In this document: in pieces, positions 10,806-31,423 of the stretch
Position numbering within the stretch: position 1 is the first letter of the stretch
How the letters are laid out: each line of letters opens with the position of its first letter
From: a virus
Lineage: Duplodnaviria; Heunggongvirae; Uroviricota; Caudoviricetes
Reading direction: 5' to 3' (one strand)
Length of the DNA stretch: 54,948 bases
Virus record (IMG/VR): IMGVR_UViG_3300033074_000450
Coordinates: 64,001-118,948 of that record
Made by a program: the position numbers and the translations under genes
Notes under the pieces: model-generated
Seen by the model: the letters and a program-made list of their open reading frames with translations, nothing else
The model's database searches: none
What the model was told of the DNA's origin: nothing

Positions 10806-11579
10806 ATGGCAATAGAGAAACGCTGGGAAGCGATAGCTCCCCGTTTATTCACATCTAATGGTGGAATAGAAGGTCAGATAACCCTTAATTCCACTATCGG
10901 TTTTAAAGTAAAACAGCAAGTCATATTAAAATCTTCGTCTCAACCTGGGACGATTCTCGAAGTGAAACGGGTCGTATCGAAGACCCTGATGTTCGTAGGC
11001 AAGCCTGGTAACATAAACGACCGTCAGAATATATCAGCATACCTAGTGGCTGATGGAGCTTCTGTAGAGGCTCTGGAACAACCTAGAGCCAATATCCACA
11101 TTCAAGAGCACGAGAACGCAGTCTACGCTGAAGAACCTATTGTAGCTAAACGCAGTATTTTGGTAGATGAGCTTGGTAATTATTACAATGACCAGAATCC
11201 AATTCCTATCAAAATTGATTATTCTCAATCGGATTCTTCTGTAAAATCTACATTTGGGGAGATAGCTTCATTAGCGGCTAATACTCAAACTAACGTAGTT
11301 TCTTATATGGCTCCTTTGGATAAGGAATCCTTTTTAGAAAAAATTGAAGTGTCGGGAACCAACATAGCCGAATATGAAGTTTTTGTTAATGCTACGAAGA
11401 TAGCTAAGAGAAGAACTCATTTTGGAGCAGATTTGTCTACGGATTTTGAGTTTGATTCTCCAGCAGGTAAGGGTTTACCCCTAGCTCCTGGAGATGTTGT
11501 TACAGTAAAAGTAACTCATCCCCGTCCGTATGTTGGAGACTTTGAGGCTAGAATCCAGACCTTAGAGGTTGTTTTCTAA
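10806..11579 (+). CDS. Putative virion structural protein (beta-rich C-terminal domain)
   Basis: Late promoter upstream; shares DE.GN.Y...NP.P motif with 11795..12574. Confidence 0.55.
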   Translation: MAIEKRWEAIAPRLFTSNGGIEGQITLNSTIGFKVKQQVILKSSSQPGTILEVKRVVSKTLMFVGKPGNINDRQNISAYLVADGASVEALEQPRANIHIQEHENAVYAEEPIVAKRSILVDELGNYYNDQNPIPIKIDYSQSDSSVKSTFGEIASLAANTQTNVVSYMAPLDKESFLEKIEVSGTNIAEYEVFVNATKIAKRRTHFGADLSTDFEFDSPAGKGLPLAPGDVVTVKVTHPRPYVGDFEARIQTLEVVF

Positions 11580-11580
11580 A

Positions 11581-11590
11581 ATGATATAAT
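11581..11590 (+). promoter_or_regulatory. Putative late promoter
   Basis: ATGATATAAT. Confidence 0.65.
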
Positions 11591-11607
11591 AGATAAAGAG
11601 GTTTAAG

Positions 11608-11793
11608 GTGAGCAATTTAGAAGAAAAAGGCTTAGAGTTACAAGTAAAAAAAGCAGAAGTTCAAATTGCTGAACTTGAATTTAAGATATTGGAAAGACAA
11701 GCTGATATCGAAAGAATTTTAGCTCATATTGAGCTTCAGAAAAAAGTTATAATCGACTCGCAAGAGAAACTTAATAAGTTAAGGGGAAAGTAA
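11608..11793 (+). CDS. Short coiled-coil protein
   Basis: GTG start, SD GAGG, continuous heptads. Confidence 0.6.
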   Translation: MSNLEEKGLELQVKKAEVQIAELEFKILERQADIERILAHIELQKKVIIDSQEKLNKLRGK

Positions 11794-11794
11794 A

Positions 11795-12574
11795 ATGGCA
11801 GACTATGATAGTGGTTTACCGATAAGAACAGAAGCCGATGGGACGGATGAGAGACTACACTCTAAGATTGTAGATTTTGCAGACCCAGGTGGAACCGATA
11901 AACAAGTTGAAGTAAGTGAAAAGTTACTCCATAATCGTAATTTTGGTCACGACCCAGCAGGTCTAAAAGTCCAAGAGCGTCTATCGGAAACTGGAGAAAC
12001 AGCAGTAGATGGTACATATAATGCCACTACGAATACAAATCCAGCAAATATTGGAGTTGTAGTTCAGGAACGAAACGCTGCCTCTTCTGATGTTCGTCAG
12101 ACAATGAAGCCCACAGCTATCCGTGGCACTGTAGATAATACTAAAGTGGCTATGGATATCGCTCTCAATGACGAGAATGGTAATTCATATACCAAAGACA
12201 ATCCACTCCCTGTTTCTCTAGAAGAATCAGAGGGAGATGAGATTTGTGATAGAAAGACCTCTACTTCTGTAGCCGTAGATACAACTGTCACTCATGATTA
12301 CACTGTAACTGCTCTTAAGAGTTTAATTATTGATGGAGCATGGATTAGTGCCTCTGGAAAAATTAAAGCTGTTCTTTCGGTAGAGACTGGAGTTGGAACT
12401 GGAGTATTTACTCCTAAATTTGACGCTTTCAATTCAACATCCTCTCCAAACATTGAAATTCCAATCAAGAAAAGACTTGAAGTAGCTGCTGGAGTTAGGG
12501 TCAGAATCTCTATTACCAACCGAGACAACCAACCGCAAGACGTTTATTCAACTCTATTAGGGGATGAGAAATAA
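11795..12574 (+). CDS. Putative virion structural protein
   Basis: Paralogous motif with 10806..11579; beta-sandwich-like C-terminus. Confidence 0.55.
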   Translation: MADYDSGLPIRTEADGTDERLHSKIVDFADPGGTDKQVEVSEKLLHNRNFGHDPAGLKVQERLSETGETAVDGTYNATTNTNPANIGVVVQERNAASSDVRQTMKPTAIRGTVDNTKVAMDIALNDENGNSYTKDNPLPVSLEESEGDEICDRKTSTSVAVDTTVTHDYTVTALKSLIIDGAWISASGKIKAVLSVETGVGTGVFTPKFDAFNSTSSPNIEIPIKKRLEVAAGVRVRISITNRDNQPQDVYSTLLGDEK

Positions 12575-25702: not shown

Positions 25703-25731
25703 AGAATAGATTGATTTTAAAGGAAAGTCAA
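25703..25731 (-). promoter_or_regulatory. sigma70-type promoter (ligase operon)
   Basis: Minus strand TTGACT-17nt-TATTCT. Confidence 0.75.
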
Positions 25732-25739
25732 ATAAAATG

Positions 25740-25768
25740 TTGACACATATCTTAAAGCAGTCTAATCT
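25740..25768 (+). promoter_or_regulatory. sigma70-type promoter (sigma-factor operon)
   Basis: TTGACA-17nt-TAATCT, divergent from the ligase promoter. Confidence 0.75.
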
Positions 25769-25784: not shown

Positions 25785-25985
25785 ATGAAAATTTTACCCG
25801 TACACCTTTTAAAACTCCGTTGGCTCCTTGCTAATACAGACCTCTTGAAGAGGACTGAGCTGGAGCTGGTACAAAATATGCAACAATCTTGGTCAAAAGT
25901 CAATTACTTAGTTTCCTGTCCTGTAACTTTGTCTGCATTGGATAAAGTTTATGAGTCTGTCAAAAAGGAGTACACATGTCAGTAA
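25785..25985 (+). CDS. Hypothetical protein upstream of sigma
   Basis: SD AGGAGG; overlaps the sigma start. Confidence 0.6.
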
Positions 25986-27502
25986 AAGATACGCTCGAAT
26001 CTTACAGTGCAGAATTAGATGTGGTCAAGTCGTATCTTGCCAAACTGAATAGATTGGAACTTCTTACCAAGGACCAAGAAGCTGAGATTTGCAAAGCTAT
26101 CGAAGTTGGAGAAGATAAGATTCTGAAAGTGTGTGTCAGGTCCCCTCTCATTTTGAAACAGATTCTTTCTTACAGAAATATTCTAATAGAGAATCCTTCT
26201 ATGGTAGTTGGCATGGTTAGAAAGCTAGACGAGGAATCCTCTGATGAAGAAATAAATGAAACCTTTAAAAGGATGTTTACCCTTTTTGAGGCTATTGACA
26301 CTTTCCTAGATAAGCCTACAAAAGTTTTGGAAAAGAAGATTGTTAGTGAATTACAGGAACTCACCTTTAATACTAAAACCATCACGGCTTTTCTTCAACC
26401 ATTCAAAGACTTAGTTCAGAAGGCTAAGGATTTGAGAAAGAAGAGTGACCTCAATCTCAAAGAGTTAAGACTCGAAAACCATAAACACTTTGCAAAACTG
26501 TTGATTTCTTTGACAGATAAACTTGAAGGTAATGAGCCTATTTTAAATGAAGAAGCTGTGAGTAATCTAGCCCACTCTCTTGGCTTTTCTGTAAAAGAGA
26601 CAAGAGCCATGATTGAAGCTCAGAAAACTTTGATGCGTGAATTAGCCATAAATTCAGTATTGCTTGAAAAAGACTATAAGAAGCTGGAAACTACTAACTC
26701 AGTTTTATTCAAAGCGGAGCAAACTGCAATCCTAGCCAAAAACAAACTAATTGAGGGAAATCTTCGTTTAGTAGTTTCACGGGCTAAAAAGTTCACTAAC
26801 CGAGGTTTGGAGTTTGAGGATTTGATTCAGGAAGGTAACATTGGGCTAATGAAGGCTGTTGATAAGTTTGAATATCGAAAAGGTTATAAATTCAGTACTT
26901 ATGCAACATGGTGGATTGACCAAGTTCTAGGAAGGTCTATTGCAGACCAATCCAGAATGATTCGTTTACCAGTCCACATGGTTGAGACCGTCAACGCTGT
27001 TAACAAAGCTAGAGCCCGATTGATTCAGGTTCTAGGCAAGGAACCATCTGTGGAAGACCTAATCAAAGCTACTAAGCTTGAGGAAGATAAAGTACGAAAA
27101 GCTCTCTCTATTGCAAAAGACCCAATTAGCTTTGAGACGGAGGTTTCTGGAGACCAAGATTCCCCAGAAGGTTCAACTCTCGAAGATTTTATCGCAGACA
27201 CTTCCGAGACCAGTGCCTACAAGAATGTGGTTAGACAAGCCCTGATGGAGGGTATTAGAAAGCTCTTGTCAAGACTTCCTCCTAGAGATGAGAAGATTAT
27301 TAGGCTTCGTTTTGGTATTGGGGAGCCTTTGAACGAAGATTATACTCTAGAAGAGATTGGAAATAAGTTTCCAAATACTAAAACTGGAGAGCCTTTGACC
27401 AGAGAACGTATTCGACAAATTGAAGAAAAATGTAAGGCCAAACTCAAGAAAATGAGCAAGGGTGAGATTTTCAAGCTCTTGTTCCTTTCAGAAGATTTGT
27501 AA
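25976..27502 (+). CDS. rpoD: Phage-encoded RpoD-like group 1 sigma70 factor lacking region 1.1
   Basis: Region 1.2 DVVKSYL..LLTKDQE; non-conserved region; [49 protein letters not shown]; IRLPVHMVE; TLEEIG...TRERIRQIE. Confidence 0.97.
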
Positions 27503-27522: not shown

Positions 27523-27533
27523 ATGATATAATT
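27523..27533 (+). promoter_or_regulatory. Putative late promoter
   Basis: ATGATATAATT, 8 nt before the next ATG. Confidence 0.7.
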
Positions 27534-27541
27534 ATGGGAGT

Positions 27542-28318
27542 ATGGCTGATATCAATGTTAAATTTAGAGCTGCTGAACTGGGTAAGTCTTTGGAGAATCT
27601 CGCTTATGAGGTCCAACAAGAACTAGACCAGGCCATCAAGGATACCGCTAATGCGGCTTATGCGACCATTGTAGCTAAGGCTCAAGCTGACCTTAATTCG
27701 ACTAGAGCTGACTATTTAAAAGGATTGTCTTTTGAAGAGCTAGGGAATAACACCTATCTAATCACTTTAGAAGGTGATTGGGCTAATGCCCTTGAAAAGG
27801 GATTTTCAGGATTTGATATCCGTGAATGGATGTTATCCTCTGAGAAGGTAGTTCAGGTAGGAACTAGGACGGGACAAAAATGGGTACAGACTGGAGCTAG
27901 TGGTCAGAAATTCGCACACGTTCCTTTTGAGCATAGGCCACATTCTAAGGCTCCTAAAACGTCTGATTTGGCTCAAGCTATAAAAAAATTACAAACACAC
28001 AATCGTTCTGGCAGAGTCCAGAAATTCACTTCTATCTTTAAAGATGCTGCTGGTAAGCCTCTTGAGGGACGAGTAGCTTCAGTTAAAAAAGTTGAAGGAT
28101 TTCCTCAACTTGACGGTATTACAAAGTATCAGAAAATCTACAAAAACGAATCTACAGGTAAGCAGAGTGTTCAGTCCGTCTATATGACTTTTAGGACTGT
28201 TTCTGAAGCTGCTGAGTCTTGGAGACATCCAGGCTTTGAGGGTCTCAAAGCTTTTGATGAAGCCGAGAAATGGGTAGAAGAGCAGATTGATACAATTATA
28301 ATGACCCTGATTAAATAA
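27542..28318 (+). CDS. Putative neck / tail-completion protein
   Basis: Lies between head and sheath genes; HK97 gp10-like position and W.HPGF end. Confidence 0.5.
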   Translation: MADINVKFRAAELGKSLENLAYEVQQELDQAIKDTANAAYATIVAKAQADLNSTRADYLKGLSFEELGNNTYLITLEGDWANALEKGFSGFDIREWMLSSEKVVQVGTRTGQKWVQTGASGQKFAHVPFEHRPHSKAPKTSDLAQAIKKLQTHNRSGRVQKFTSIFKDAAGKPLEGRVASVKKVEGFPQLDGITKYQKIYKNESTGKQSVQSVYMTFRTVSEAAESWRHPGFEGLKAFDEAEKWVEEQIDTIIMTLIK

Positions 28319-29566: not shown

Positions 29567-31423
29567 ATGGGAATCAAAAAATCTTTCGCTGGAGCATCAA
29601 TCAGAAAACCTGGAGCATATTCTAGGTCTAAAGTTGATAATTCGAGTGGAGCACCTCTTGGAACGAATGACACATTATTTTTAATCGGAGAAGCCGATTC
29701 TGGTAGAGCTGGTTCTGTTGAAGGAATCGTAGAATTTACTGCTGAACAAATTGACCGCTTAATCGAAAAGTTCACTTCTGGTCCTGTTGTTGACTGTGCT
29801 CTTGCAGCTACCCGTCCATCCCCAGATTCTACTATCGGTGGAGCTGGTCGTATTTTAGTGTATATCACTAATGCGTTGGCTCAAGCGTCTAGAACTGTAA
29901 ACGAAGCTACCAATACCAACCCTCTTTACTCTGTAAAAGACCGTAAAGGTGGAGTTTCTGGTAATGACCTTTCAATCACTATTGCCAACGGTACTGTTCC
30001 TGCTCGTCAGAAACTTATCACTATCAATCGTTTGAATGATACCGCTGAAGTATTGGGTGAGAATCCTGGTACTGCTGTAATCTCGATTGATTACACTGGA
30101 GATGCTACAACTGCTTCTGCTGTGATTTCTGGAGCTTCTAAAGCTGCCAAAACTCTTGCAATTACCCTTGCTGGAGACCAAACAGACGGTTCATTGAACC
30201 AAAGCATTATGCTTGCAAACTATACTTTCAAACAACTTGTGGACTTCATCAATGCTCAAGTAGGTTATGCTGCTGTTCTTTTGGATTCTTCTAAAGCTGC
30301 TTTGAAAGCTAATGAGCTTGACTCAATCGGTGCTACTAGCATTCTTTCAGTTACTAGCTTGTATCGTCTTCAAGAAGAAATTCTTGAACTCATCAATGAA
30401 TCTGACCGTGTAGAGGCTTCTTTGGCCGCTACTCCTGTTGTAGGTCTGCCTGTCAACTTGACTAACTCCTTCCTTTCGGGTGGAGCTAAAGGTGCATCTA
30501 CTAACTCTAGCTTCTCAACTGGACTCTCTAAGTCACTTGCACGAGACTACTCTGTAGCTCTTCCTTGTATCTCTAGAGACGCTTCTGCTGATATCGCTGA
30601 CGGCATGACTGATGCAGGTTCTACTTATACTATCGCTGCTGTTCAAGCCGCTCTGGAAACTCACCTTGTTCTTCGTGGTTCTGTTAAGAATCGTAAAGAA
30701 GCTCAAGGCCACACTGGTTTCCGTGATGCTCAGAAAGCTGACTGTTTTGCTCAAGCTGCTAACATCGGTTCTGAGTTGGTTCAGGTTTCAATCCAGGACG
30801 TTTTAGTTCTTGATGTGAACGGTGACTTGGCTTGGAAACATCCTCATGTTCACGCTGCCCTTTGTGCAGGTATCCGATTGGGTACTGAAGTCGGTGAGCC
30901 TTTGACTCACAAGTTCCTAAACGTAAACGGAGTTGGTCACGTTGTAGACCCTCTGACTGGTTTGGAAACTGGAGACTTTAACGAGAGTCTGGATGTTGAT
31001 GATGCAATCGACGCTGGAGTTACCTTCTCTGAAAAAGCTCAGGGTGGACACCGAATCGTTGTGGATAACACAACTTATGGAGTTGACCAAAGCTTCGTAT
31101 TCAACAGGGGTTCTGTTGTAGAAGCTGCTCAGTTTACTGCTAAGACTCTTCGTGAGACTGCTGAATTGGTTTTCGTTGGTAAGAAAGTTTCTAACGGAGC
31201 TGCTTCTTCCATCAAGTCGGTTCTTCGCAATAAACTTGAAGAGTTGAACAGAGCTAACATCATCACCGCTTCTGACGATGCTCCTCAAGGTTTCGTAGAA
31301 GAGACTTTCGTAGTTACCGTAACTGGAAATACTGCTGAAGTTCAAGTTGAAGTTAAACCTGTTCAAGGATTGGACTTTGTATTCATTACTTTCACTTTGG
31401 GAGATATTAAGCAATCAGCTTAA
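29567..31423 (+). CDS. Contractile tail sheath protein
   Basis: IRKPGAYSRS N-terminus; LIGEADSG; IVVDNTTY; VEVKPVQGLDFVFITF C-terminus. Confidence 0.92.
   Translation: MGIKKSFAGASIRKPGAYSRSKVDNSSGAPLGTNDTLFLIGEADSGRAGSVEGIVEFTAEQIDRLIEKFTSGPVVDCALAATRPSPDSTIGGAGRILVYITNALAQASRTVNEATNTNPLYSVKDRKGGVSGNDLSITIANGTVPARQKLITINRLNDTAEVLGENPGTAVISIDYTGDATTASAVISGASKAAKTLAITLAGDQTDGSLNQSIMLANYTFKQLVDFINAQVGYAAVLLDSSKAALKANELDSIGATSILSVTSLYRLQEEILELINESDRVEASLAATPVVGLPVNLTNSFLSGGAKGASTNSSFSTGLSKSLARDYSVALPCISRDASADIADGMTDAGSTYTIAAVQAALETHLVLRGSVKNRKEAQGHTGFRDAQKADCFAQAANIGSELVQVSIQDVLVLDVNGDLAWKHPHVHAALCAGIRLGTEVGEPLTHKFLNVNGVGHVVDPLTGLETGDFNESLDVDDAIDAGVTFSEKAQGGHRIVVDNTTYGVDQSFVFNRGSVVEAAQFTAKTLRETAELVFVGKKVSNGAASSIKSVLRNKLEELNRANIITASDDAPQGFVEETFVVTVTGNTAEVQVEVKPVQGLDFVFITFTLGDIKQSA

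Follow-up and report, generated by a model that had tools for sequence, protein, structure and literature searches.

The window analysed here, a stretch of 54,948 nucleotides (nt) that corresponds to bases 64001-118948 of the virus record IMGVR_UViG_3300033074_000450, comes from an uncultured 119-kb tailed phage (the record has 118,948 bp and a CheckV completeness of 100%) and carries a gene for a sigma-70-family protein, the sole sigma gene in the whole genome. Judging from sequence comparisons, we lean towards the reading that this protein is a middle/late sigma factor of the phage that serves a class of promoters without a -35 element, and that the likely change in its specificity lies in region 2.4 rather than in the seven extra residues present in the helix-turn-helix (HTH) of region 4.2. 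An earlier note on this DNA had held that insertion responsible for retuning a captured host primary sigma to such promoters; the insertion exists, but the same promoter boxes are kept in relatives that do not have it.

Two promoter classes in the genome

The genome contains two promoter classes, and these are tied to different gene sets. The class without a -35 element (class II) is represented by exact occurrences of TGNTATAAT, of which there are 16 on the + strand and three on the - strand of the whole genome. Thirteen of these 19 sites are intergenic, although intergenic DNA makes up 5.6% of the genome; 12 of the intergenic sites are on the + strand, 15-64 nt upstream of the start of an open reading frame (ORF), and the remaining one is on the - strand, with no ORF of that strand nearby. 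When aligned, class II sites read aTG(A/G)TATAATt, with A favoured at -16 and T at -6, and since the alignment holds no information upstream of -17, they have no -35 element. Position -13 holds a purine in 12/13 intergenic sites and C or T in four of the six sites that overlap called ORFs. Among the genes located behind class II boxes, one codes for a baseplate protein and another for the tail assembly chaperone; the block holding the tail sheath gene is headed by the box that follows the sigma gene. This post-sigma box (Table 1) is found at the same place in relatives L002, L004, L006, L008 and L010 and, as TGATAAAAT, in L039. Their G+C content is 38-49%, the flanks of the box have diverged, and in all of them except L002 the sigma factor lacks the insertion.

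The post-sigma box ends 5-10 nt ahead of the next ATG (window 27524-27544; genome 46241; L006 11514, L010 11483 and L039 ~3490). With so short a gap, transcripts that start from it should have no leader or hardly any, and the GGAG ribosome-binding site would be carried only by RNA that reads through from the sigma operon.

Class I promoters, which have both a -35 and a -10 element, head the RNA ligase/5'-nucleotidase/exonuclease operons, the DNA-ligase cassette and the sigma operon itself. Among genome matches to TTGAC[AT]-N16-18-TAnnnT the spacer is of 17 nt in 18/24. In the predicted promoter of the sigma operon the -35 element is perfect and the -10 element matches the consensus at three of six positions (T-12, A-11 and T-7), so that a simple consensus scan missed it and it was recovered by comparison with relatives: eight of these (L002, L004, L006-L010 and L039) keep it as TTGAC(A/T)-17-TA(A/T/C)T(C/A)T, with a variable spacer sequence. 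Both the existence of a TGnTATAAT class without a -35 element beside a -35/-10 class and the expression of the sigma factor from a promoter of the latter type had been proposed in the earlier note, and both are supported by the promoter scans and alignments, the expression as a prediction. In all relatives the divergent -35 boxes of the ligase and sigma promoters form an inverted repeat, with GTCAAA and TTGACA separated by 5-8 nt (window 25726-25745), and this repeat could double as an operator.

The course of events that we favour would run as follows. Since the sigma operon has a host-type promoter (TTGACA-17-TAATCT), the host RNA polymerase would make the sigma factor, together with the product of a 66-codon ORF that precedes it, early; the sigma factor would then compete for and bind the host core RNA polymerase, steering it to the aTG(A/G)TATAATt class. 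Substitutions in region 2.4 would weaken the usual duplex contact at -12, such that a full extended -10 element would be required. Class II heads the tail operons as well as other + strand operons, including the one that starts 40 nt past the sigma gene. An early-to-late switch, as had been suggested before, is plausible given the two promoter classes and the -35/-10 type of the sigma operon's promoter. The case for such a late-gene role is circumstantial and comes from the position of the gene, the two promoter classes and the lack of any other sigma gene in the genome.

Several points weigh against this reading. A consensus extended -10 element is an excellent substrate for the ordinary sigma-70 holoenzyme, and the host sigma could consequently read class II unaided. 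The T-R-E-R-I-R-Q residues of region 4.2 are kept in most of the clade to which the phage protein belongs, which one would not expect of a sigma factor that works on -35-less promoters only, and which fits a reading of TTGACA too. In addition, the T at -12 of class II sites is ordinary, so that the changes in region 2.4 have no evident counterpart in the -10 hexamer, and most of the genes that lie behind class II boxes upstream of the sigma gene have an unconfirmed function, six of them having no PHROG match. We infer, with these points in mind, that class II is read by the phage sigma and not by that of the host, and that this is due to region 2.4.

The main rival explanation, which we regard as credible though rather unlikely, is that the protein serves as a general surrogate for the host housekeeping sigma, reading both classes and boosting or insulating phage transcription (e.g. 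through evasion of the regulators that act on sigma-70 in the host, or through activity in non-growing cells) rather than timing the late genes. All residues that read the -35, the -10 and the TG are indeed kept except in region 2.4, both classes are variants of sigma-70 promoters, and a consensus extended -10 requires no special sigma. Moreover, the loss of region 1.1 (see below) takes away an auto-inhibitory domain, and the perfect -35 in the sigma factor's own promoter would permit positive feedback. However, such a surrogate leaves unexplained why four positions of region 2.4 that are near-invariant in cellular primary sigmas were altered and then fixed in the clade, as well as why two sharply distinct promoter classes are tied to different gene sets.

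One may also consider a scenario in which the sigma factor acts mainly on host genes while the host sigma reads the phage late genes, possibly with the help of a phage factor that blocks the use of the -35. Here too extended -10 promoters would need no special sigma, and reprogramming of the host has been proposed for the sporulation-type sigmas of Bacillus phages (PMC9429907). Nevertheless, in every relative the sigma gene stands at the same point, heading the tail-gene block beside a class II promoter, and we consider this scenario very improbable.

Region 2.4 and the turn of region 4.2

Region 2.4 had already been singled out as altered, and this is the case: it reads WWIDQVLGR, and the four changed positions correspond to R436, A438, I439 and T440 of E. 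coli sigma-70 (Table 1). All 30 clade members have an acidic residue at the R436 position (Asp, except for one Glu) and Gly at the T440 position, within the motif [DE]Q[VTC][LI]GR, whereas cellular RpoDs have Arg, rarely Lys, at the first of these positions. When all of the ~35 phage-type relatives that lack region 1.1 are taken together, every one is acidic at the R436 position and nearly all have Gly at T440. The signature is shared by more distant proteins without region 1.1 (P0340, P0341 and P0429; P0358 has the Asp only) and by the IMG/VR loci L097 and L115. An exhaustive search of 1.84 billion cluster representatives gave 146 library-wide representatives, in which the R436 position is occupied by Arg in 135, by Lys in four and by Asp or Glu in five, and the latter five are short phage-type proteins whose N-termini lie at or beyond region 1.2. 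In 185,579 species genomes, YATWWIDQ was found in six sigma genes, four of which, in three genomes (from Myxococcaceae, Planctomycetota and metagenome-assembled genomes (MAGs) of Bacilli, the latter with two of the genes), are extra paralogues beside a primary sigma with WWIRQAITR; the other two are in MAGs of the candidate phyla radiation (CPR). Asp at the R436 position thus recurs in other viral sigma genes (L080, L107, L114, L115 and L097) as well as in these paralogues and CPR genes of bacterial MAGs (L011-L016), and WWIDQ may mark a wider functional type.

Because D/E436, A438V/T, I439L and G440 sit on residues that touch the duplex at about -12/-13, these substitutions are, we infer, the strongest candidates for an alteration in promoter preference. 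The relevance of these positions to promoter preference follows from published mutagenesis, in which R436S/A weakens binding to duplex promoters, and Q437H and T440I alter specificity at -12 (PMC2613000, PMC3592454). We also considered whether Asp436 might read the -13 purine directly, an idea for which there is no structural basis, since a purine-specific contact normally needs a hydrogen-bond donor, and which remains speculation.

A broader version of this argument, which we put forward tentatively and consider rather doubtful, is that the [D/E]436-G440 signature marks an unrecognised class of phage-borne sigma factors, devoid of region 1.1 but bearing the large non-conserved region (NCR), that would work only on aTGrTATAATt, the contact with -12/-13 having been lost and region 4 having been left free to drift. 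Such drift of region 4 is suggested by indels in the HTH turn and, in some members, by R584K, E585Q and R588E. If this is true, a sigma swap alone, with no AsiA-like protein, would shut -35-dependent early promoters and open late ones.

As for the insertion in region 4.2, it is real, in frame and preserved across some divergence, although the range 27371-27397 given for it in the earlier note takes in the next two codons (P and L), and the net insertion is shorter (Table 1). In a HMMER alignment to solved RpoD chains the seven-residue gap falls exactly between F and the residue preceding TRERIRQ, the -35-contacting residues, which are intact despite the insertion. In the AlphaFold2 model the insertion forms a loop or mini-hairpin (residues 465-475) between helices 458-464 and 476-491, with predicted local distance difference test (pLDDT) values from the mid-60s to the 70s. 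The turn has two residues in 212 of 217 homologues, nine in four and four in one, a constancy of length far from what chance would give. The only carriers of the insertion are P0001-P0004, which are 82-87% identical overall; P0005 (80% identity) has an ordinary two-residue turn, and P0006 has a separate indel (+2, ETPV) at the same site. A turn longer than usual was observed in 0/146 of the library-wide representatives, and a search seeded with words from residues 430-508, and thus biased towards any protein sharing the insertion, retrieved no further carriers. None of the cellular RpoDs examined has it either, which answers the objection, named in the earlier note as one that would refute its claim, that the RpoD of the host lineage might share the insertion.

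Could the insertion, by disabling or retuning the reading of the -35, have made the sigma factor dependent on the extended -10? Its location would suit such an effect, as the extra residues interrupt the very turn, normally of two residues, that leads into the recognition helix and whose length is otherwise near invariant, and the second indel at this site in P0006 gives the impression that turn geometry is less constrained in this sub-lineage. Yet the -35-less boxes are kept in relatives with a normal turn (L004, L006, L008, L010 and L039), the insertion is confined to four closely similar proteins, the residues of the recognition helix are unchanged, and the class I TTGACA and 17-nt spacer are the same in genomes with the insertion (the window and L002) and without it (L004 and L006). 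We therefore find this explanation improbable. The insertion appears instead to be a recent, tolerated loop extension of one young sub-lineage and, because the same boxes are kept in relatives with a two-residue turn, dispensable for the -35-less promoter class. It is of narrower interest, as a natural case in which the turn of a sigma-4 helix-turn-helix accepts a loop.

Two further features of this part of the gene may be mentioned. Within window positions 27320-27400 there is a second small indel (+2, 'LN' in GEPLNEDYT), restricted to P0001-P0005. The tetrapeptide GEPL precedes the first HTH helix and recurs where the insert ends, with 13/15 bases identical, and this repeat hints that the insert may have had a microhomology-mediated origin.

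Identity and descent of the sigma protein

The protein belongs to the sigma-70 family, with Pfam matches above the cut-off to Sigma70_r2, r3 and r4 (PF04542 with 75.1 bits, PF04539 with 57.9 and PF04545 with 40.5) and a match to Sigma70_r1_2 that is marginally under the threshold (20.3 vs 22 bits). Region 1.2 can nonetheless be aligned, with D15, Y20, L21, L29, L30, E35, I42, E43, G45 and E46 invariant. Region 1.1 (PF03979) is absent, as there is no Pfam match and the N-terminus extends only 13 residues ahead of region 1.2; the RpoDs of Bdellovibrionota have ~100 extra N-terminal residues, which bear PF03979. The NCR is retained, and can be aligned by sequence with Bdellovibrionota RpoDs and by fold with E. 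coli sigma-70. Sigma-70 chains taken from structures of the E. coli holoenzyme align with the AlphaFold2 model (mean pLDDT 79.8) over ~500 columns. The absence of region 1.1, the retention of the NCR and the presence of a near-full-length sigma factor of group 1 type on a phage genome were thus correctly recognised at the outset.

The best NCBIfam models are those of RpoD, all with scores below the curated cut-offs (NF004208, 399 vs 555 bits; NF006666, 276 vs 572 bits), and the same is true of the C-terminal RpoD model TIGR02393 (289 vs 354 bits; 292 in a six-frame search of the genome). Scores fall short of the cut-offs also for RpoS (TIGR02394, 223.7 vs 378.7 bits; NF004207, 208.3 vs 394 bits) and for MzaA, the sigma factor of the MZA anti-phage system (NF041931, 308 vs 800 bits), while the PHROG match is to phrog_351, 'RNA polymerase sigma factor' (6e-87). 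Since it has no region 1.1, scores below the RpoD cut-offs and has an altered region 2.4, the protein is not a true group 1 RpoD.

Neither the residues that bind the core enzyme (region 2.2) nor those that melt the -10 (region 2.3, FSTYATWW) vary among the proteins of the phage clade and the cellular RpoDs, and this speaks in favour of a functional sigma factor. PVHMVE of region 3.0, with the equivalents of H455 and E458, is intact, as had been noted; its P, V, H, M and E columns are invariant in alignments A1 and A2, and being invariant everywhere it is not informative. The 'finger' of region 3.2 (residues 382-411, window ~27119-27208) is 2-3 residues longer than that of cellular RpoDs and is modelled with pLDDT <50.

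In the order of its parts (1.2, NCR, 2, 3, 4) and in its core-binding, -10-melting, TG-reading and -35-reading residues, the protein resembles bacterial RpoD, both of E. coli (sigma-70, PDB 4YLN and 6PSV) and of Bdellovibrionota. Identity is 39-41% over 96% of the length with the RpoDs of Bdellovibrionota, and ~50% over regions 2-4 with solved RpoDs. It differs from RpoD in being phage-encoded, in lacking region 1.1, in having D436/V438/L439/G440 and in the seven extra residues of the turn.

A search of 5.8 billion proteins retrieved a distinct set of ~30 relatives of 457-520 residues with 46-87% identity, several of them on contigs of ~112-121 kb, after which there is a sharp fall to cellular RpoDs at ~40% identity. 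In a tree of 38 sequences the phage clade is monophyletic (100/100); its stem measures 1.32 changes per column, and its sister group consists of the RpoDs of Bdellovibrionota, Myxococcota and E. coli, in none of which it is nested. A tree of 103 sequences that includes the library-wide representatives likewise has a single phage clade (Shimodaira-Hasegawa-like approximate likelihood-ratio test (SH-aLRT) 99, stem 1.07), which joins an unresolved backbone of Gram-negative RpoDs, weakly beside two long branches. No lineage is outstanding among the cellular representatives of the exhaustive search, whose scores lie on a plateau of 256-296 bits. The domain make-up of the sigma factor shows that it descends from a group 1 (primary) sigma of the NCR-bearing, Gram-negative type. 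The long stem and the lack of nesting in any sampled bacterial lineage imply that any capture was ancient and preceded the radiation of the clade; capture of a host primary sigma, as originally proposed, thus holds in this ancient sense only.

Bdellovibrionota were considered as the host because their RpoDs lead the cellular matches, but in neither tree does the phage clade fall among them, and such a host was not retained as a conclusion. A 20-kb part of the window had no megablast match among 50,697 phage records, and no protein of the INPHARED phages matched more than 63% of the sigma factor. The 185,579 species genomes contain no close relative or prophage copy, only the six sigma genes sharing WWIDQ, and no tRNA genes that could serve as a host clue were found in the genome. 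When phage GroEL was searched for a host, the matches were at least 120 mostly phage-sized contigs and one MAG that is probably mis-binned. This GroEL (genome L035, 9068-10666) has at least 120 relatives with 60-93% identity, many on contigs of 95-125 kb. Since these far outnumber the ~30 relatives of the sigma factor, many members of the wider GroEL-bearing phage family may lack this sigma or have a more distant one. RpoD-like genes are also present on other large viral contigs, e.g. L081, L100 and L112.

Neighbouring genes and known systems

The sigma gene is flanked by the DNA-ligase cassette, on the - strand, and by tail genes (Table 1). In the contigs of seven relatives the order is DNA-ligase cassette (-), sigma, a 258-residue gene, a 320-residue gene, tail sheath and tail tube.

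Table 1. Features of the sigma locus, in window coordinates
Feature	Position	Strand	Details
Predicted class I promoter of the sigma operon	25740-25768	+	TTGACA 25740-25745, 17-nt spacer, TAATCT 25763-25768
66-residue ORF	25785-25985	+	AGGAGG ribosome-binding site; 3' end overlaps the sigma start codon
Sigma-70-family gene	25976-27502	+	508 residues, open ORF; region 1.2, residues 14-47; NCR, ~50-245; region 2, 258-327; region 3, 337-409; region 4, 430-492
Region 2.4	26909-26938	+	residues 312-321, including WWIDQVLGR; with E. coli numbering, R436D, A438V, I439L and T440G
PVHMVE, region 3.0	26969-26986	+	residues 332-337; H455/E458 equivalents; unchanged
Insertion in the turn of the region 4.2 HTH	27371-27391	+	21 nt, in frame (PNTKTGE); the 25-residue region 4.2 stretch that holds it starts at residue 457; from DNA alignment with L002, L004, L006 and L007
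Putative class II box	27523-27533	+	aTGATATAATt (core 27524-27532), no -35; 22 nt past the sigma stop, 9 nt before the ATG of the ORF at 27542
258-residue ORF	27542-28318	+	phrog_16819, function not assigned; opens the tail-gene block after the class II box
Tail sheath gene	29567-31423		part of the tail-gene block

The 66-residue ORF that overlaps the sigma start codon is present in L002-L008 and L039, with an invariant LPVH..K.RWL (alignment A3), but L009 and L010, both deeper relatives, do not have it. No family match was obtained for it in Pfam, PHROG or Atlas, and for this reason the idea that it represents a detached region 1.1 is without support. Its product could be a partner or a regulator of the sigma factor; a complex prediction for the two proteins had a score of 0.00, which counts neither way on binding. 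In L007 a 69-residue gene and a gene for a homing endonuclease of the I-HmuI/NUMOD type are inserted between the sigma gene and the 258-residue gene (11518-12307), and a new TGATATAAT box is located immediately 5' of the endonuclease gene.

In lacking region 1.1, and in being close to group 1 in regions 2-4, the phage protein is similar to group 2 sigma factors (RpoS and the cyanobacterial SigB-E type), which are dispensable paralogues that compete for the core polymerase. RpoS, unlike the phage sigma, has no large NCR, and it keeps a basic residue at the R436 position. Phage sigma factors that drive late promoters without a -35 are of a known kind, as in T4 (gp55) and SPO1, and the phage described here would be similar to these in producing a sigma factor from a host-type promoter and in having late promoters without a -35. 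The classical phage sigmas are short and very divergent (PMC9429907). In contrast to them, the present protein is a near-full-length derivative of group 1, and its putative promoters are consensus extended -10 elements rather than a new motif. Middle and late promoters that consist of an extended -10 without a -35 are also known from Thermus phage P23-45 and from T4 with AsiA. In those systems a small protein modifies region 4 of the host sigma, whereas this phage brings a whole sigma factor. The new elements are a coherent clade of group 1 architecture minus region 1.1, a diagnostic [D/E]436-G440 and a clean layout of two promoter classes.

Apart from having lost region 1.1, this clade differs systematically from cellular RpoD only on the helix in contact with -12/-13, where a charge is reversed and Thr is replaced by Gly. 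The host sigma and the phage sigma thus form a natural minimal-difference pair that bears on the part played by regions 2.4 and 1.1 in the tuning of promoter choice, and the system offers a way to ask how a virus times its genes by sigma competition alone.

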